Made by a program: the position numbers and the translations under genes. The notes beneath the pieces are model-generated. The model saw nothing but the letters and a program-made list of their open reading frames with translations, was not told the origin of the DNA and did no database searches. A stretch of DNA of 11,810 nucleotides from a bacterium (GTDB lineage Bacteria; Sysuimicrobiota; Sysuimicrobiia; Sysuimicrobiales; Humicultoraceae): positions 1 to 11,810 of the forward strand of contig JBGQGY010000113.1 of the NCBI GenBank assembly GCA_041497675.1, written 5' to 3'. This document shows positions 2,527-11,810 of this stretch, piece by piece (positions within the stretch are counted from its first letter, which is position 1; each line of letters starts with the position of its first letter).

Positions 2527-2985
2527 TCACGGAGTGTCCTGCTGACGAACCGTAAGCACGGGGATCCGACTGTACCTCACCAGGTGTTCCGCGACGCTGC
2601 CGATCAGCACATGCCCCAAGCCTGTCCGACCGTGCGTTCCCATGACAATGAGGTCAGCCTTGAGTTCCTGGGCCACGTCCAGGATTATGGATCGCGGCAT
2701 TCCCTCCCGGATGAGAGTTCGCGCGCGCGGCAGGCGGGCTGCCAGTTGTTTCATCGCCGTGTTGGCGTTGTTCTGTATCTCTTGGATCATTGCATCGTCC
2801 ATCCACAGACCGATATCTGGCGAGGAGGCCACGATCGCAGGGGTGACGAGGTCGAGGACATGCAGGAGCACAATCTCGGCCCCTGTTGCCTCTGCGATTC
2901 TCGCGGCCAAACGCAGCGCTGGCTCGGCCCCGGGCGACAGGTCAGTAGGAACCAGAATGAGCTTGAGTTGACTGGCTGCGGCCAT
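2527..2985 (-). CDS. Universal stress protein (UspA family)
   Basis: ILVPTDLS, LLHV and ADLIVMGTHGRTGLGHVLIGSVAEHLVRYSRIPVLTV (G-2X-G-9X-GS ATP-binding motif). RBS GGAGGGG. Confidence 0.96.
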   Translation of the reverse strand: MAAASQLKLILVPTDLSPGAEPALRLAARIAEATGAEIVLLHVLDLVTPAIVASSPDIGLWMDDAMIQEIQNNANTAMKQLAARLPRARTLIREGMPRSIILDVAQELKADLIVMGTHGRTGLGHVLIGSVAEHLVRYSRIPVLTVRQQDTP

Positions 2986-3114
2986 GCTCTTCCCCTCCGA
3001 TGCAATGGATACCAGTCCACACCAATGCTACGACGCGCGGCCACAGACGGGCCATCGGACGCCGGAAGTATTCAGTAATGTGCGCCGGGGGGGTGGCGAG
3101 ACGAGAAGAGGCTG

Positions 3115-4071
3115 TTAGGTCACCGTCGGCGCCGCGTGCGCGGCTGTCGCAGCAGACATCGCCGCCTTGGCTTCCAGGGCCGCCCAGTTCTCTTCCACCC
3201 ATCTCTGCAGGCGCTCAGCCACATCGGGCGCCGCTGCGAGATGCTTGAAGCGGCCCTGCATCGCCAGCCAGTCGGCCACCGGCCGCACGCGCGCCGGTTT
3301 GACGGTGATGCGCCACCGTCCCTTTTCGACCTCGTACAGCGGCCAGTAGTGCGTGTCGACGGCAACCTGCGACAACTCCACCGTGAGGTTCGTGGGATAG
3401 TCCCAGCCCGGCTGGCACGGCGCCAGCACATTGAGGAACGACGGACCCTGCACAGCAAGGGCCTTGGTGATCTTCTTCGCAAGGTCACCCCAATGGCTGA
3501 TGCTGGCCTGCGCCGCGTAGGGGATGTTGTGCGCCGCGACGACTTCGGTGAGGTCCTTCCGAAACTCGACTTTGCCCGGAACCACCCGGCCGGCGGGCGT
3601 CGTGGTCGTGCGGGCCCCGGGCGGGGTTGCGCTGGAGCGCTGGATGCCGGTATTCATGTAGCCTTCGTTGTTGTAGCAGATGTACAGCAGGTCGTGACCG
3701 CGCTCAAGCGCGCCGGAGAGGCTCTGAAGCCCGATGTCGTAGGTGCCGCCGTCGCCGCCGATCGCGACGATCTTCGGCGGCGCATCCAGCCGGCCGCGCC
3801 GGACAAGCGCCCGCACTGCCGCCTCCACACCGGAGGCGGTCGCCGCCGCATTCTCGAACGCGCTGTGCAGATAGGGCACCGGCCAGGCGCTGTAGGGATA
3901 GATCGTGGTCACGACTTCCATGCAGCCCGTCGCGTTGATCACGACCAGCGGTTGCTTCGCGGCCGTCAGCAGCAGGCGAATGATCGTCGGGAAGCCGCAC
4001 CCTGCGCACGCCCGATGACCGGGCGCGAGACCTTCACCGTGCGTCGACAGTTCGCGCAGGTTGAGGCTCAT
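3115..4071 (-). CDS. porB: Pyruvate/2-oxoacid:ferredoxin oxidoreductase beta subunit (TPP-binding)
   Basis: GHRACAGCG, ATGCMEV, FENAAA, TPP motif GGDGGTYDIG...NNEGYMNTGIQRS, PCQPGW. ATGA overlap with the porA stop. Confidence 0.94.
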   Translation of the reverse strand: MSLNLRELSTHGEGLAPGHRACAGCGFPTIIRLLLTAAKQPLVVINATGCMEVVTTIYPYSAWPVPYLHSAFENAAATASGVEAAVRALVRRGRLDAPPKIVAIGGDGGTYDIGLQSLSGALERGHDLLYICYNNEGYMNTGIQRSSATPPGARTTTTPAGRVVPGKVEFRKDLTEVVAAHNIPYAAQASISHWGDLAKKITKALAVQGPSFLNVLAPCQPGWDYPTNLTVELSQVAVDTHYWPLYEVEKGRWRITVKPARVRPVADWLAMQGRFKHLAAAPDVAERLQRWVEENWAALEAKAAMSAATAAHAAPTVT

Positions 4072-5252
4072 GACTCGTCTCCTCGGACGCCCAGATACCC
4101 AACGGGTGGCCCATCGACCTCGCCGAGCAGCAGCGAGGCGACGGCATCGAGATCCTCTGGGCGAAGATCACGGCCGCCCAGCCCGAAGATTCGGTTGAAG
4201 AGCCGCGGGGGGGTCGCGGCTCCGTACAGGGCGGCCGCGGTATCCACGACGAGCGGCCCCCCGAGCGTGCTCAAGGTATCGGCTCGCTCGAGGACGGCCA
4301 CGCGGCTGAAGCGGGTCAAGACCGTGCGTACCGCCATCGCCGGGAACGGCCGGAACAGCCGCAGGCGCACCAGCGCGACCTTGCGGCCCGCATCCGCCCA
4401 GCGTGCCACGGCTTCTGCCGCCACGTCGGCTGTGCTGCCGAGCAGCATGATGGCACACTCGGCATCGTCCGGTCCCATGGTCTCGAGAAGGGGCGGCAAC
4501 GCCCGGCGGAAGTGGCGGTTGAACGCCTCCGTCGCCTCGTCCACCGTATGGATCGCGACCGTCATGGCCTCGGCCTGGGCCCGACGGAACTCCATGTACG
4601 AATCGGGGAGTGCGAGCGGTCCGACGGTAATCGGCGGGCCGGTCAGCACCGAGTATGCCGGCTGTGGTGTCCCGATGAACGCTCGAACTTCATCGTCCTC
4701 GAACACATCAACCGCTTCGAGGCCGTGGCTGAGGGTGAACCCGTCTAGACACACCATCGCTGGGATTCGCGCCGCTTCGGCGATGCGCACGGCCAGGATG
4801 GCTGTTTCGTACGTTTCCTGCACATCACGGCAGTAGAGCTGCATCCAACCCGCGTCCCGCGAGCCCATGGCGTCCGAGTGATCGCCGTGGATATTCAAAG
4901 GCGCCGAGAGCGCGCGGTTCGCCACGGCCATGGTGATGGGCAGGCGGAGTCCGGCGGCGATATAGAGCATCTCGTGCATCAGCGCCAGGCCCTGCGAGGC
5001 AGTCGCGGTCGTCACGCGTGCCCCACCGGCCGCGGCGCCGATGCACGCCGACATCGCCGAGTGCTCCGACTCCACCGGGACGAAGATCGTGCCGACGTCA
5101 CCGTCGGCGACGAACTGCGAGAACTTTTCAACGATCCCGGTCGACGGCGTGATGGGATAGGCGGCGACCACATCGGGGTCGATCTGCCTCCAGGCCATCG
5201 CGACCGCGTCGTTGCCGGTCAACCCAATTCGGCGCCGGGTGGCTATAGCCAT
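4068..5252 (-). CDS. porA: Pyruvate/2-oxoacid:ferredoxin oxidoreductase alpha subunit
   Basis: GNDAVA, AYPITP, VESEHSAMSACIGA, TATASQGL, ANRALSAPLNIHGDHSD, DGFTLSH, RLFRPFP, GLGGRD. Start at ATG 5252 (TGATG coupling to the upstream stop, RBS GGAGG). Confidence 0.94.
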   Translation of the reverse strand: MAIATRRRIGLTGNDAVAMAWRQIDPDVVAAYPITPSTGIVEKFSQFVADGDVGTIFVPVESEHSAMSACIGAAAGGARVTTATASQGLALMHEMLYIAAGLRLPITMAVANRALSAPLNIHGDHSDAMGSRDAGWMQLYCRDVQETYETAILAVRIAEAARIPAMVCLDGFTLSHGLEAVDVFEDDEVRAFIGTPQPAYSVLTGPPITVGPLALPDSYMEFRRAQAEAMTVAIHTVDEATEAFNRHFRRALPPLLETMGPDDAECAIMLLGSTADVAAEAVARWADAGRKVALVRLRLFRPFPAMAVRTVLTRFSRVAVLERADTLSTLGGPLVVDTAAALYGAATPPRLFNRIFGLGGRDLRPEDLDAVASLLLGEVDGPPVGYLGVRGDES

Positions 5253-6178
5253 CAGGTTTCCTCCGGGACCATGACGATCGAGTGCGCGCGTGGCGGGCAC
5301 ACCTCGGCGCAGATGCCGCAGCCCTTGCAGTAGGTCAGGTCGATCTGCGTGATCCGGCCGTCTTTGGTGATGATCGAGGAGTCAGGGCAGTACAGCCAGC
5401 AGAGCATGCAGTGGACGCACGTGCTGAGGTCGAGCCGCGGCTGTTGTTGCCGCCAGTCGCCGGTCTCGAACTGCCGGCTCGTCCCTGCCGGCATGTACGG
5501 GCCCGCCGCCGCATCCTGCCACCGGAGGCCCTCGCGTGCTTGCCGGCGCGGCGGAGCAGCCGTCCCGTCGGTGGTCCGAAGGGGGGTGGGGTTGGGCTGC
5601 CCCGCCAGCGCCGCGAGCACGGTGGTCGCAGCCGCGAGATTGCCCGCGACCACCTCAGGCCTGAACTCCTTGCCGAGCCGCTTCTCTAGCCAGCGCAGGA
5701 ACTCGTCCTGCGGCAGGAGATCGAGAGATGCAACAACTGCCGACAGCATCGGAACGTTGGGCAGGTCGCGACCCAGCGCGTCGCGAGCGGCCGACGATGC
5801 GTCCACGAGGACCAGACGGCCGGGCACGCGAGCCGCGATCGCGGCTCGCGAGTCTGGCGGCGCGTTGACGAACACGATCGTGTCCGGTGTCACGCCGTCC
5901 AGCGTCTGGGGCGCGTCGAGCAGCCCTGGGTCGAGCACCGCGATGGCGTCGGGATTCGTCACCGGGCCTCGCTGTGCGATACGATGATCGGCGATTCGGG
6001 TAAACGCCTGAACGGGCGCTCCCCGGCGCTCCGGGCCGAATTCGGGCGCCGCCTGCGCGTACCCGCCGGCGTCGATGATCGCCTCGGCGAGTAAGATCGC
6101 GGCGGTCTTGGCTCCGTACCCTCCGCGCCCGTGCCACCTGAAGGACAATGCGCGGAGCCCCACCCTGGTTGCGCTCAT
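5252..6178 (-). CDS. porC: Fused gamma-delta subunit of the 2-oxoacid:ferredoxin oxidoreductase (PorC + PorD), 308 aa
   Basis: Gamma motifs RWHGRGGYGAKTAA, PEFGPERRGAPV, PNVPML. A Pro/Thr/Ala linker follows, then delta motifs TGDWR, CVHCMLCWLYCP and CKGCGICAEVCP (2x[4Fe-4S]). ATG 6178 with RBS GAGGAG. Confidence 0.92.
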   Translation of the reverse strand: MSATRVGLRALSFRWHGRGGYGAKTAAILLAEAIIDAGGYAQAAPEFGPERRGAPVQAFTRIADHRIAQRGPVTNPDAIAVLDPGLLDAPQTLDGVTPDTIVFVNAPPDSRAAIAARVPGRLVLVDASSAARDALGRDLPNVPMLSAVVASLDLLPQDEFLRWLEKRLGKEFRPEVVAGNLAAATTVLAALAGQPNPTPLRTTDGTAAPPRRQAREGLRWQDAAAGPYMPAGTSRQFETGDWRQQQPRLDLSTCVHCMLCWLYCPDSSIITKDGRITQIDLTYCKGCGICAEVCPPRAHSIVMVPEET

Positions 6179-6342
6179 GCCGCTCCTCGTCGGCCGGCGG
6201 CTGGACCACCACCCGCCGGTCGGTCTTACGACTCCAGAATCGGCCCGGAGGCTCTCCCGAACAATCGGGCGGCGGCCCGATCTTGGGTCCGGCGCCGGCG
6301 GGCAGGGAGTAAGAACGCCATATCTCTTCGAATACTCCACCC
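6179..6342. promoter_or_regulatory. Divergent intergenic region (por operon vs moeA-mobB) rich in inverted repeats
   Basis: Non-coding gap between divergent starts. Stems at 6191-6200/6213-6222, 6264-6270/6275-6281 and 6224-6235/6306-6314. Confidence 0.5.
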
Positions 6343-8088
6343 GTGCCCAATGACGCGCCCCGCGAGAAGATGCGCCCCCCGAGCGTTGAGGACGCTCTGA
6401 CGATCATCCTGCGGGCGACCGCGAGGGGCGCTGCAGAGGATGTGCGGCTGCCGGAGGCTGCGGGTCGCGTGCTCGCGGCGCGCATCGTGGCGACGGAGGA
6501 TCTCTGGCCGTTCGCACGGGCGGCGATGGATGGCATCGCGGTACGCGGTGCAGATGTGGCCGGGGCGTCAACAGAACACCCCGTACGCCTCCTCGTGACC
6601 GGCGCCGTGTACGCCGGGCAGGCGGCGGATGGCGCGCTGCGGCAGGGGGAGTGCGTGCGCGTGGCCACCGGGGCGCCGGTGCCGACAGGTGCAGATGCGG
6701 TCATCCCGCAGGAATTGTTGCAGATCGACGGCAACGCCGTGTTTGTCTCACAGTCCATCGCATCGGGTCAGCACATCTTCCCCGCCGGTGAGGACGTACG
6801 AGCCGGCGAGCACGTTCTTGAACCAGGCATTCTCCTGCGCGGCGGCCATCTCGGGTTGCTGGCCTCGATGGGTTGTGCCACAGTGCCGGTCGTCCGCCGT
6901 CCGGTGGTCGCGATTCTGACTTGTGGCGACGAGTTGATCGATCCAGGGGAAGCCTTGCGCCCCGGCCTCGTACGCGAAAGTAATGGATACGCACTCTCGG
7001 CCGATGTGAAGGCCGTGGGCGCCCAAGCCGTGATGCTCGACAACGCGCGCGACAATGTGCGCGAGATGGACGACGCTATTCGGCGGGGGCTGGAAGCCGA
7101 TGTGCTCATCACCAGCGGCGGGTTGTCGGTGGGCGAGCGCGACCTCGTGCGGCCGGGCTTGCGGCGGGCGGGCGTCGCGATCGAGTTTGAAACCGTTGCG
7201 ATGAAGCCCGGCGCGCGGGTGGCGTTCGGTCGCATCGGTCACCGTCTGGTCTTTGGTTTGCCCGGCACGCCCAGCGCGTGTCGCGTCGCGTTCGAGATCC
7301 TGGTGGTCCCCGCGCTGCGAACCCTGCTCGGATATCGTGACGCAGTGAGACCGCGTGTGACCGCGCGTCTCACTGCGCCCATCCGGGTCCGGCCCGGCCG
7401 CCGGCGCTACTTGTGGGGTCTGGCTACGCTCGGTGCCGACGGGGTCGCGGTCGCACCGCATTTGGTGCAGAGTACCGCGACGCTGCGCGCGTCGAGCGAC
7501 GCGAATGCCCTCATTGTTCTCGATGGCGAGACCAGCGAACTTCGCGCGGGCGCCCGCGTCTCGGTGCACGTGCCGGACCTGGAGGCCCTAGGGGGCGCCG
7601 CGGCGCCGCGGCAGGACATCATCGGTATCGTCGGCGCGCGGGGCGCGGGGAAAACCAGGCTCATCGAACGGCTGATCCCCGCGCTGGCCCGGCACGGCGT
7701 CAGCGTCGTCGTTGTCAAACATCACGCCCATCAGCTCGCGCTCGATCAAGAGGGATCCGATACGGCACGCGCGGCGTCGGCGGGGGCCGTCCGTACCATC
7801 CTGGCGGGGCCGGGCGGCGTCACAACCCGTGCGCCGTCCGGCGACGATCCTTCGCTGGAGGACGCTCTTGCCCACGCCGGTCGTGCGGATCTCGTGCTTG
7901 TTGAAGGATTCAGTCAGTCCGCAATCCCGAAGATTCTGGTGCTGGGCGGAAGCGCGGGACCTGCAAAGACCCCTCCCGCTGGGCCCATCATCGCCACGGT
8001 GGGTGATGTCGCCGGCGCAGACGCAGACGTGTTTCGTTGGGATCACATCGATCGTTTGGCCCGTTTCGTCCTGACACGCAAGAGATGA
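6343..8088 (+). CDS. moeA: Molybdopterin molybdotransferase MoeA fused to a C-terminal MobB domain
   Basis: MoeA motifs GRVLA, PFARAAMDG, TGAPVPTGADAVI, GEDV, GDEL, ESN, TSGGLSVGERD, MKPG, GLPGTP. From ~7612 MobB motifs IVGARGAGKT (Walker A), VVKHHAH, GSDT, DLVLVEGF, PKI. Start uncertain (GTG 6343 or ATG 6370). Confidence 0.92.
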   Translation: MPNDAPREKMRPPSVEDALTIILRATARGAAEDVRLPEAAGRVLAARIVATEDLWPFARAAMDGIAVRGADVAGASTEHPVRLLVTGAVYAGQAADGALRQGECVRVATGAPVPTGADAVIPQELLQIDGNAVFVSQSIASGQHIFPAGEDVRAGEHVLEPGILLRGGHLGLLASMGCATVPVVRRPVVAILTCGDELIDPGEALRPGLVRESNGYALSADVKAVGAQAVMLDNARDNVREMDDAIRRGLEADVLITSGGLSVGERDLVRPGLRRAGVAIEFETVAMKPGARVAFGRIGHRLVFGLPGTPSACRVAFEILVVPALRTLLGYRDAVRPRVTARLTAPIRVRPGRRRYLWGLATLGADGVAVAPHLVQSTATLRASSDANALIVLDGETSELRAGARVSVHVPDLEALGGAAAPRQDIIGIVGARGAGKTRLIERLIPALARHGVSVVVVKHHAHQLALDQEGSDTARAASAGAVRTILAGPGGVTTRAPSGDDPSLEDALAHAGRADLVLVEGFSQSAIPKILVLGGSAGPAKTPPAGPIIATVGDVAGADADVFRWDHIDRLARFVLTRKR

Positions 8089-8626: not shown

Positions 8627-9565
8627 TCACAGCCCGCGCTGCCCGGCGTAGACGAGCACCAGGCGCAGCGCGAGTCCTCCGATCAGGACCAGTGACGCCG
8701 AAAGTCGCGTCAGGCCGAACGTGGCATGACGCGTCTTGACTTCCACGATGCCGAGCGCCAACGGGACGACGATCCCGGCGGCGATCACCACCGGCCAGAA
8801 CGCCCACGCAAAGGTCCCCGTGATCAGCGCCGCGGCTGCGGCCTGTCCGGCCGCGGTGGACGTGGCCAGCCCAATCAGGTAGAGACCGACCAGCGTGAGT
8901 TCGACTGCTTCCACCGCGATCTCGCCGCGGACGAGCAGATGGTGCGCCGGCCCACCGGGGGCAACCATCAGCAGAAGCGCCGCGGCGGCCGACAACCCCG
9001 ACGCCAGGAAGAGTATCGGCAGAATCGGGCTGTTGAGCGCGGGCCGGGCCACCATCGTACCGAGCAGCACGCCGGTGTAGAGGCCAAGCGCCCCGCCCAA
9101 CACCAGGTTGATCCAGGCCAGCCGACGCATCCGCGGGCCGGCCCATCGCTCGACGCGTTGCAGCCACCGATGGAGCCGCGGGAAACGGCACACCCCCACG
9201 CGTGCGCGGATCGATAGGAGGGCGGGAATCGCCGCCAGCGAGGAGGTGAGGAGGATCGCCAGCAGGATCCAGGCCCCCCACGACATCGGGCTGCGCACGC
9301 GCAGGGTCAGGTAGAGCCAGAAGGGCGTCCACTTGCTGCCAAGATCGAGCCACAGCACGATCAGACCCAGGAGGATGGTCGGTGGCGTCAGTAACGTCGC
9401 CGCGCGTACGGCCGGCAAGAGCTCACGACGCCTCCCGGTCAGATGCGCCCACGACGCAAACATCAGCAGGCCGGCGGCCAGCCCGCCCAGGAAGAGGTAG
9501 ACGGCCACCGGCCATCCCCACAGGTGGAGGTGAGCGTTCAGCGCGCCGTCACGCAATTCGAGCAC
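8627..9565 (-). CDS. psrC: NrfD/PsrC-family membrane anchor (quinol-interacting)
   Basis: WGWPVAVYLFLGGLAAG, WLDLG, SPMSWGAW, YTGVLL, LPILFLASGLSAA, GGLALR..LVYAGQ. Many TM segments. GTG start with RBS GGAGGAGGT. Confidence 0.92.
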   Translation of the reverse strand: MLELRDGALNAHLHLWGWPVAVYLFLGGLAAGLLMFASWAHLTGRRRELLPAVRAATLLTPPTILLGLIVLWLDLGSKWTPFWLYLTLRVRSPMSWGAWILLAILLTSSLAAIPALLSIRARVGVCRFPRLHRWLQRVERWAGPRMRRLAWINLVLGGALGLYTGVLLGTMVARPALNSPILPILFLASGLSAAAALLLMVAPGGPAHHLLVRGEIAVEAVELTLVGLYLIGLATSTAAGQAAAAALITGTFAWAFWPVVIAAGIVVPLALGIVEVKTRHATFGLTRLSASLVLIGGLALRLVLVYAGQRGL

Positions 9566-10130
9566 TGCGCACCTCCTCCAGACTCACGGCGCCGTTGAGG
9601 AAGAAGAACTTGGGTTTCGTCCCCAGGTCGGGTCGGTCGACCTCGATCTTCTTGGCCGAGGCGAGCGTCTTGTTGATCGGGCTGTTGGCATCATCGAGGT
9701 CGCCGAAGACCAGCGCACGGGTCGGGCAGACTTCGACGCACGCAGGCTCGCGGCCGCGGGCGATCCGGTGGTCGCACAGCGTGCACTTGTCGACGAACCC
9801 ACGCGGGTGCGGGTAGCGCATGCCGTAGGGGCAGGCCGACACGCAGGCGCGGCAGCCGATGCAGATGTTGTAGTCGACCAGGCAGACCTTGTCATCGTTG
9901 ACATAGGTCGCGCCGGTTGGGCAGACGTCGACGCACGGCGGTTTCTCGCAGTGGTAGCACTGCATGTGCAGAAACATCAGGCGCAGGTTGCCTTCGTCGC
10001 CGACCGCCACCTCGCCGACCCGTCGCCGCAGGTAGCCTTCGGGCACGTCGTTCTCAATCGCGCAGGCAACGGCGCACGCCTCGCACCCGATGCACCGGTC
10101 GAGATCAACCGCCATCCCGTAGCGCGCCAC
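9549..10130 (-). CDS. psrB: 4x[4Fe-4S] electron-transfer subunit (PsrB/NrfC/DmsB family)
   Basis: CIGCEACAVAC, CYHCEKPPCVDVCPTGA, CIGCRACVSACPY, KCTLC, PACVEVCPTRAL.FGDL, GTKP. GTG start, RBS AGGAGG. Confidence 0.95.
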   Translation of the reverse strand: MARYGMAVDLDRCIGCEACAVACAIENDVPEGYLRRRVGEVAVGDEGNLRLMFLHMQCYHCEKPPCVDVCPTGATYVNDDKVCLVDYNICIGCRACVSACPYGMRYPHPRGFVDKCTLCDHRIARGREPACVEVCPTRALVFGDLDDANSPINKTLASAKKIEVDRPDLGTKPKFFFLNGAVSLEEVRSARIA

Positions 10131-10132
10131 GG

Positions 10133-11810
10133 CTAGGCCTCCTGTCCCTGCCGCGCCGATCCGGGACGCGCGCGCCCCGTCGGTTGCAGACGCACGAAGT
10201 TCACCCGCAGGCCGGCACCGCCGCTGATGGGATCCAGCGCGTACCGGGTCTGCAGCGCCGTGTCGCTCGCGCCCTTCTTGTGCGCGCGGCGCATACCCGG
10301 GGCATCGTGGCCAAAGCCGTGCACCAGGTAGACGCAGTCCTTGCGGATGCGCGCGGTAGCGCGGACCTTCACGGGGCCGCTGGCCGCGTTGTCCTGGTTC
10401 ACGAGCATGACGCGGTCCCCGGAGACCAGCCCCAGACGCGCGGCGATCGTCCGGTTGACCCAGACCTCGTTCTCGTCCATGAGACGCGTCAGCACCGGAT
10501 TGTTCTGCGTCCGGCCGAACGTGTGCACCGGCGCGCGGCCGTAGAGCAGGCGGAAGTGGCCCTCGGGCGGTTCGGCGACCGCTGTGTACCGCGGCAGCGG
10601 GTCGTGCCCGGTCTTCGCGAGTTCCTCGCAGTAGATCAGGATCTTGCCGTTTTGGGTCGGGAATGGCGACTTGCCCTTCCAGTCATCGAGATATGGCTTG
10701 CCCTTCTGGATGCTCACCCCGGCCTTCCTCATGTCAGCCAGGTTGAGGCCGACGGAGTTGAGCCGCTGTTCCAGATACTCCTCAATCGTCTTCCAGGGGA
10801 AGTACTGCTCGAGTCCCAGCCGCAGACCGAGTTCGCGCGCGATCCACCAGCCAGGTTTCGTGTCGTACATCGGCCGCACGACCGGCTGGCGCAGGGCGAT
10901 GAATGGTCGCTTGTGCGGGATCACGATCAGATCGTCGTACCGCTCGAGGTACGTGCACTCCGGGAGCACAACATCGGCCCACCGGATGTGGTCCTGCGGC
11001 AAAATGTCGATGGCGACGGAGAAGTCCAGCGCCTGCAGCGCTTTGCGGGTGCGCGCCGGGTTGGGCAGCGAGTGGAACAGGTTGACGGCGTAGGCGACCA
11101 ACCCCTTGATCGGGTACGGCTCGCCGGTGATCATCGGCTCGATCAATTCCTGGATCGCGACCCCACCGCGCAGGAACGTCTTGCGGGCACCGTCGGCCCT
11201 GGGCTTTCTTCCCGCGGGGACCTCCGGACCGGAGGTCGTCGGGCCCGCTCAGCCACCCGCCTCGGACCCGATTGGGAAGGGCGGCAGCGGGTACTCTTCG
11301 ATGTAGGGCGACTCGGCGATGTAGAGGCCGCCTTGCCTTCCCCAGTTACCCAGCAGGATGTTGACGAGGTACACCGCGCGCATCCGCTGCGTGTCGTTGC
11401 CGTACCAGACGACGTGTCTGCCGGGGACCAGCACTGCCCGCGGCCGCACGCGCGCCATCTCCCGTGCGATCTCGGCAATCTCATCGGCCGGGAGTTCCGT
11501 GATCTGCGCGGCCCACTGCGGCGTGAAAGGCTTCACGTGCGCCGCGAGTTTCTCGAACCCGTCCGTGTAACGAGCAATGTATTCGTGGTCATAGAGGTTT
11601 TCGGTAACCAAAACGTGCATCCACGCTAACAACAGTGCTGTGTCGGTGCCCGGTTTGATCGGGAGGTAGTGGTCGGCCTTCGAGGCTACCGTCGAAAACC
11701 GTGGATCCACGACCACGACCTTTGCGCCACGGGCACGCGCCGCCGCGAAGTCCTGCATCATCGTGTTGTGGGCGTTCTCGCCGATGTGCGTGCCCAGCAG
11801 GACGATGTAG
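10133..11810 (-). CDS. psrA: Mo-bisPGD catalytic subunit, PsrA/PhsA/SrrA clade (5'-truncated), read through an in-frame TGA at 11249-11251 as probable selenocysteine
   Basis: ORFs 11249..11761 and 10133..11146 share a frame (offset 615 nt). Continuous translation: YIVLLGTHIGENAHNT...VVDPRFS...IKPGTDTALLL...GNWGRQGG...PPFPIGSEAGG-U-AGPTTSGPEVPAGRKPRADGARKTFLRGGVAIQELIEPMITGEPYPIKG...WADVVLPECTYLER...HTFGRTQNN...HGFGH. These are DMSO-reductase-family motifs and the gene is followed by psrB and psrC. Confidence 0.92.
11214..11248 (-). promoter_or_regulatory. Candidate bacterial SECIS element directly 3' of the in-frame UGA
   Basis: mRNA: UGA GCGGGCCCGAC GACCUCC-GGUCC-GGAGGUC CCCGC. A perfect upper stem (11237-11219) begins after an 11-nt spacer and its loop contains GGUC. 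A lower stem pairs GCGGG (11248-11244) with CCCGC (11218-11214). Confidence 0.8.

Follow-up and report, generated by a model that had tools for sequence, protein, structure and literature searches.

The action of SelB on the selenocysteine insertion sequence (SECIS), as known from Escherichia coli and Moorella, is the basis of the mechanism that we propose here for a hairpin following an in-frame UGA codon in psrA, a gene of the polysulfide/thiosulfate reductase type in a bacterium of the Humicultoraceae (Sysuimicrobiota). The window analysed is a stretch of 11,810 nucleotides that makes up the entire contig JBGQGY010000113.1 of assembly GCA_041497675.1. The closest described RNA element is that of E. 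coli fdhF, the gene of formate dehydrogenase H with selenocysteine (Sec) at position 140, and SelB of E. coli needs a bulged U in the upper stem of the element. The fetched fdhF gene reads UGA, an 11-nt spacer (CACGGCCCAUC) and then GGUUGCA-GGUC-UGCACC, so that the element lies in the coding region directly after the UGA, with the spacer forming a lower helix with downstream sequence. The general bacterial consensus, given by the bSECISearch model as restated in a figure legend (PMC13188914, Fig. 2 legend), asks for a loop of 3-9 nt on a stem of 4-16 bp, a G in the first two loop positions, as a rule with a G or U after it, a spacing of 16-37 nt and an energy of -7.5 kcal/mol or lower; a bulged U is not required. 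The closest described enzyme is PsrA of Thermus thermophilus (PDB 2VPW-2VPZ), whose insert loop likewise contains GG-Cys, whose partners are likewise PsrB and PsrC, and which needs no SECIS because it carries Cys (about residue 388 of the chain, by count) where the gene studied here has UGA. Judged from sequence comparisons, the psrA hairpin is very probably a functional bacterial SECIS element of a Sec-containing, Thermus-type PsrA.

Fit of the psrA hairpin to known SECIS elements

On the minus strand the TGA is followed by the 11-nt spacer GCGGGCCCGAC (11248-11238), the arm GACCTCCG, the triplet GTC, the arm CGGAGGTC and CCCGC. A first, sequence-only reading of the window had described a perfect palindrome with a GCGGG/CCCGC lower stem at 11214-11248, and both the sequence and RNAfold agree with that description base for base. 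The 9+1+9 palindrome folds physically as a perfect 8-bp stem with a 3-nt loop, and the first five bases of the spacer (GCGGG) pair with CCCGC. When 55 nt were folded, the 8-bp upper stem and the 5-bp lower stem constituted both the minimum-free-energy and the centroid structure (-25.5 kcal/mol, ensemble frequency 0.79); the free energy was -22.1 kcal/mol for 41 nt and -12.7 kcal/mol for the upper stem-loop alone.

Compared with the general consensus by its stated constraints, the hairpin falls within all four, with a 3-nt loop on an 8-bp stem, the loop sequence GUC, 19 nt from UGA to loop and energies of -12.7 to -25.5 kcal/mol; the loop is as short as the consensus allows. The psrA element is also like that of fdhF in its position in the coding region directly after the UGA and in the participation of the spacer in a lower helix. 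The 11-nt spacing, claimed beforehand as fdhF-like, was borne out by the fetched gene, whose loop also has G23 and U24 as in psrA, and the fdhF spacer had been given correctly. The claimed likeness of the two spacers fared less well: 6 of the 11 positions are indeed shared, but the spacer varies among psrA orthologs, and we therefore take the likeness as coincidence. The fdhF element has a 4-nt GGUC loop, a shorter stem and a bulged U, whereas that of psrA has a 3-nt GUC loop on a perfect 8-bp stem without a bulge. The host genes also differ, and the Sec of psrA is not the Mo ligand. The earlier suggestion of a lineage-specific SECIS without the bulged U is right about the absence of the bulge, but no special class is called for, since the element agrees with the general consensus, in which the bulge is not a requirement. 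The RNA element itself is ordinary, a textbook-shaped bacterial SECIS, and the host protein is the more interesting of the two.

Conservation and covariation among PsrA homologs

Among 61 related genomes an ortholog of psrA was found in seven, including the genome of the window, at 76-100% identity, with TGA in five and TGT in two at the same codon. Of 80 loci kept from reference genomes, 42 encode an insert loop of about 25-30 residues with an invariant GG[C/U] (14 TGA, 28 Cys) and 38 are without the loop; a further 80 loci kept from metagenomes, classed by alignment, comprise 20 with TGA, 29 with Cys, 30 without the loop and one that does not cover the site. PsrA of T. thermophilus (2VPW) belongs to the loop-bearing group, with Cys at the position aligned to the UGA. 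The sequences flanking this position are conserved among the homologs. In a quick maximum-likelihood tree of 51 rows the loop-bearing proteins form one clade (Shimodaira-Hasegawa-like approximate likelihood-ratio support, SH-aLRT, of 100), within which Sec occurs in two sub-clades, an Armatimonadota-like one that holds the window (5 Sec, 2 Cys) and a Chloroflexota-like one (11 Sec, 3 Cys). The tree requires at least five changes between Sec and Cys, three of which are forced by well-supported branches. The Chloroflexota-like sub-clade includes one Anaeromyxobacteraceae contig with a Chloroflexota-type Sec gene, which suggests lateral transfer. Among the 120 matches listed in a protein-database search, the names were generic ('molybdopterin-dependent oxidoreductase', 'thiosulfate reductase/polysulfide reductase chain A') and none was flagged as a selenoprotein.

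The hairpin follows this distribution of Sec. When distinct 63-nt downstream segments were counted, with an unbroken stem of 6 bp or more as the criterion, the stem was present in 31 of 32 TGA homologs and in 11 of 49 Cys homologs, and a stem with GT in the loop in 29 of 32 and 1 of 49, respectively; the rates in Cys homologs are those of the genome background (28% and 5.6%). The three TGA homologs without GT in the loop of such a stem are L027, where a single mismatch breaks the stem, and L057 and L168, both with CGGGCU as the loop. The hairpin is thus kept in TGA homologs and mostly absent from Cys homologs, as the sequence-only reading would have it, and none of the three computational outcomes set beforehand as refuting that reading was found.

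Covariation provides a separate view of the same structure. In the clade of the window (seven TGA sequences), the paired share of cells is 94.5% and falls to 35-56% when the partners are slid by one to three columns, and four base pairs are altered on both sides. In the seven orthologs the upper stem is paired in 98.2% of cells and the lower stem in 88.6%, the latter with two pairs changed on both sides, and one homolog, L084, has a nearly wholly different stem, CGCUCUCCG-GUG-CGGAGAGCG. The Chloroflexota-type clade (25 sequences; loci L040-L062 and L130-L191, also L057, L162 and L164) has a distinct hairpin, GGAGGC-N4-6-GCCUCC, that starts 16-18 nt after the UGA and carries GGUC, CGGGUU, CGUGUU or AGUU in its loop. 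Here 84.9% of cells pair, against 31-72% when slid, and two pairs show swaps from GC to AU.

Several of the compensatory changes are non-synonymous on both arms, which argues that the RNA constrains the peptide of the insert loop (TTSGPEV in the window), as had been suspected from the single sequence. In L026, a change from Thr to Pro on one arm is matched by Val to Gly on the other, and in L146 and L191 Ala to Thr is matched by Pro to Ser, with the base pair kept in each case. Furthermore, the U of the apical loop stands third in a GGT codon for Gly, a minority codon in the gene (8 of 47 Gly codons) that is yet kept in all seven TGA orthologs of the clade.

Sec machinery and alternative explanations

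The genome contains selA, selB, selC and selD. The genes for SelA (536.6 bits) and SelB (361.5 bits, with SelB-wing_2 and wing_3 domains) and a tRNA-Sec with anticodon TCA lie together on contig C24, and selD lies on contig C39 with an in-frame TGA of its own. In a relative (G005, contig C4) selB stands about 5 kb upstream of a Sec-type psrA on the same strand (50122-51987 and 56865-58511). A screen of all TGA triplets of the genome asked first for a following stem of 7 bp or more with GT in the loop (2,707), next for frames open to either side (311) and last for codon-position G+C typical of coding sequence to either side (18); selenoproteins without a stem of at least 7 bp bearing GU in the loop would escape such a screen. 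The 18 survivors comprise psrA, SelD and three further genes whose TGA takes the place of an established catalytic or redox Cys (Table 1), the other 13 being adjacent genes read through a real stop or sequences without a family. The hairpins of these other selenoprotein genes are like that of psrA in their G+C-rich stems of 7-9 bp, their GU-containing loops and their distances of 19-32 nt from UGA to loop; they differ in that their sequences are unrelated and that the SelD hairpin lies farther downstream. This shared shape, which emerged from the comparison with other selenoprotein genes that the sequence-only reading had called for, matches what is expected of hairpins recognized by a single SelB.

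The mechanism that we propose borrows from the described SelB systems. As the ribosome nears, the mRNA 3' of the UGA would fold into the 8-bp G+C-rich stem capped by GUC on its short lower helix. By analogy, the C-terminal winged-helix domains of SelB, carrying guanosine triphosphate and Sec-tRNA(Sec), would bind the apical stem-loop through its exposed G and U, and the complex so tethered, about 20 nt downstream of the A site, would lead to insertion of Sec rather than to termination. Since the element lies within coding sequence, the hairpin would at the same time constrain the variable peptide of the insert loop.

Several observations weigh against a SECIS function. The bulged U is absent from the perfect 8-bp upper stem, so that the element falls outside a strict fdhF-type definition. 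In shuffling tests the energy z-scores of the hairpin were -0.56 and -0.83, unremarkable in a genome of 66% G+C; because the genuine fdhF SECIS scores +0.32 in the same test, we dropped this measure as uninformative. A scan of the region against Rfam (E up to 10) gave only two chance-level matches (E 0.96 and 6.6), with a family set that may not model short bacterial SECIS elements. Each of the five relatives tested proved to have selB, those with a Sec-type PsrA and those with a Cys-type PsrA alike, and the idea that the Cys form is confined to genomes without Sec machinery was rejected on this count. The hairpins of three of the four other selenoprotein genes in the genome are partly a product of construction because the screen required a hairpin, SelD being the only example found independently of it. 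One group of close Cys orthologs (L020, L123 and L196) retains a perfect hairpin and the SGPE peptide, and therefore coding or recent ancestry alone can maintain the hairpin for a while. Finally, only three phylogenetically independent contrasts between Sec and Cys are available. On average the hairpin goes with Sec in 1.7 of these, shows the opposite in 0 and shows no difference in 1.3; a sign test with three contrasts cannot reach significance and close relatives inflate the counts, so the raw TGA and Cys counts overstate the evidence.

How far the hairpin stands above chance was gauged from all 104,958 TGA triplets of the genome, with stems starting 5-25 nt downstream and loops of 3-8 nt. 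Stems of at least 6 bp follow 28.2% of them (5.6% with GT in the loop) and stems of at least 8 bp follow 5.6% (1.17%, or 1,232, with GT in the loop), so that the psrA hairpin by itself is only modestly unlikely. It is conservation across homologs, not the hairpin alone, that raises it above chance. The palindrome was also considered as a member of a repeat family, and this was rejected: no second copy occurs in the genome at up to one mismatch, and both matches at two mismatches are themselves not palindromic and are copies of an unrelated repeat. The two sites concerned (C95:~2900-3040 and C198:~1230-1370) are near-identical copies of about 140 nt with a strong terminator-like palindrome (GTGGCCCGCC..GGCGGGCCAC) that is unrelated to psrA.

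These background rates bear on the view that the hairpin is a by-product of coding, the Ser-Gly-Pro-Glu codons (TCC GGT CCG GAG) being palindromic by accident and Sec insertion, if any, depending on something else. Stems of 6 bp or more after more than a quarter of TGA triplets speak for such a view, and the Cys group of L020, L123 and L196 fits it as well, with the peptide ASGPEA next to a perfect hairpin. However, the same place holds hairpins with quite different sequences and peptides (SGA in L084, EEAGLP in the Chloroflexota type), non-synonymous changes occur in pairs that preserve pairing, the rare apical GGT codon persists in every TGA ortholog of the clade, and the other three Cys lineages of that clade (L028, L122 and L124) have lost the hairpin. 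We consequently hold an origin from coding alone to be improbable.

Two further explanations dispense with a SECIS altogether. If the TGA were a true stop, the gene would be broken or split, as gene callers would in fact render it, and the hairpin would then play no part, or would serve as a pause or terminator element separating the halves. Yet the frame stays open for 371 further codons with coding-type G+C by codon position on both sides, the same TGA recurs in 35 other homologs at 60-96% identity with Cys at the position in the rest, no run of T lies 3' of the stem, and the Sec machinery is complete; a true stop is accordingly very improbable. The perfect 19-bp palindrome, symmetric on both strands, could instead serve as DNA, as a protein-binding or recombination site, but it occurs once in the genome and inside a gene, its position is fixed relative to the UGA, and base pairing rather than sequence is conserved across clades, which leaves this explanation with hardly any probability. 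A SECIS function thus remains by far our favored explanation, and the proposal that the hairpin lends independent support to Sec recoding is sustained by the machinery, the fit to the consensus, the contrast between TGA and Cys homologs and the covariation.

Host gene, genomic setting and significance

With the TGA read through, the psrA frame (11809-10133) encodes a C-terminal portion of 558 residues that holds this single in-frame TGA and ends in a TAG at 10135-10133, its 5' end being cut off by the contig end; the assembly break thus falls inside psrA. The partial protein has Pfam Molybdopterin and Molydop_binding domains. Its top NCBIfam model is PhsA, at 371 bits and under the cut-off of 694 of that model, and its residues 1-549 align with residues 202-749 of PDB 2VPW chain A (E 1.5e-251). 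The N-terminal ~270 residues are encoded on a second contig of the genome, at the very start of C68 (1-~800, minus strand), in a piece identical to the last ~40 codons of the window (11683-11809) over the overlap. Its translation shows a twin-arginine translocation (Tat) signal (TRRDFL), a CxxCxxxC Fe-S motif and an SMCTTPRE motif, the Cys of which we take to be the Mo ligand of PsrA. Since this motif sits in the N-terminal part on C68, the TGA is not at the Mo-ligand position.

The genes for a 4Fe-4S subunit and an NrfD-type subunit stand downstream of psrA, which defines a psrABC-type operon. High similarity to the solved enzyme over the full length, together with the PsrB and PsrC partners, identifies the enzyme as a Thermus-type PsrA, with polysulfide/thiosulfate reductase activity as its predicted function. 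The operon is adjoined by a fused MoeA-MobB gene (6343-8088, plus strand; molybdopterin molybdenumtransferase and a domain of protein B of molybdopterin guanine dinucleotide synthesis), which fits a local supply of the molybdenum-bis(pyranopterin guanine dinucleotide) (Mo-bisPGD) cofactor. Farther along, the window holds three 2-oxoacid:ferredoxin oxidoreductase genes at 3115-6340 (a POR gamma subunit with a ferredoxin domain, a POR_N/PFOR_II subunit and a thiamine pyrophosphate-binding subunit). An ABC-2 exporter pair occupies 929-2507, and 3-428 holds the start of a citrate synthase gene; all of these lie on the minus strand.

Table 1. Features of the psrA region in the window, and other putative selenoprotein genes of the same genome (contig:positions) with the site of the UGA-encoded residue (U) and the hairpin that follows
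Feature	Location	Strand	Basis	Site	Hairpin
psrA/phsA-type Mo-bisPGD catalytic subunit	10133..11809	minus	translation, Pfam domains, PDB 2VPW match
UGA read as Sec, residue 187 of the partial protein	11249..11251	minus	alignment (Cys: 29 homologs from genomes and 29 from metagenomes; TGA: 15 and 20 others) and Sec machinery
SECIS lower stem, 5' arm, GCGGG	11244..11248	minus	RNAfold; ortholog pairing
Unpaired 5' internal loop CCCGAC, remainder of the 11-nt spacer	11238..11243	minus	sequence, RNAfold
SECIS upper stem, 5' arm, GACCUCCG	11230..11237	minus	RNAfold; ortholog pairing
Apical loop GUC	11227..11229	minus	sequence, RNAfold; G is nt 23 and U nt 24, the U of UGA being nt 1
SECIS upper stem, 3' arm, CGGAGGUC	11219..11226	minus	RNAfold; ortholog pairing
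SECIS lower stem, 3' arm, CCCGC	11214..11218	minus	RNAfold; ortholog pairing
psrB, 4Fe-4S ferredoxin subunit	9549..10130	minus	Pfam Fer4_11 and related families
psrC, NrfD-type membrane subunit	8627..9565	minus	Pfam NrfD, 5.2e-38
CTP-synthase-C-terminal-related (seleno)protein	C18:17798-18607 (L202)		NF004836, 331 bits (cut-off 260)	GT-U-GGFQ	9 bp, loop GGU, +11
ResA-like UGC protein	C15:38886-39995 (L200)			W-U-GC	7 bp, loop GUC, +14
PrxQ-like UxxC protein fused to a DsbD_N-like domain	C19:25602-26636 (L203)			W-U-PYC	7 bp, loop GUG, +14
Sec-type SelD	C39:14954-16033			G-U-ASK	7 bp, loop CGUGU, +25

The value of the hairpin lies in the independent evidence it provides that the UGA of psrA encodes Sec. 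On that evidence Thermus-type PsrA would count among the selenoproteins of at least two bacterial clades, with Sec at a position other than that of the metal ligand. The passages on enzymes of the dimethyl sulfoxide reductase family in two earlier papers treat Sec only as a ligand of Mo or W (PMC7331816, PMC10100899). The main texts of a 2026 selenoproteome review (PMC13188914) and of the BSepDB paper (PMC13326102), to which this statement is confined, contain no mention of polysulfide, thiosulfate reductase, Psr, Phs or PF00384. Because gene callers split such genes, surveys of the sulfur cycle will under-count or mis-call Sec-type psrA.

A tentative and rather doubtful extension of these results is that two sequence-unrelated SECIS solutions arose in one PsrA insert loop, one at UGA+11 with a CCUCCG-GUC-CGGAGG core in the Armatimonadota-like lineage and the other at UGA+16-18 with GGAGGC-N4-6-GCCUCC in the Chloroflexota-like lineage. 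They would mark an undescribed and widespread selenoprotein family in which Sec takes the place of a Cys that is invariant in the clade and distinct from the Mo ligand, a residue on which the sulfur chain might travel, as a perselenide or persulfide, towards or away from the molybdenum site. The role of the loop residue is directly testable because a solved structure of the Cys form exists (2VPW). If the proposal is true, this residue would do, within the enzyme itself, the work of a separate sulfur-transfer protein.

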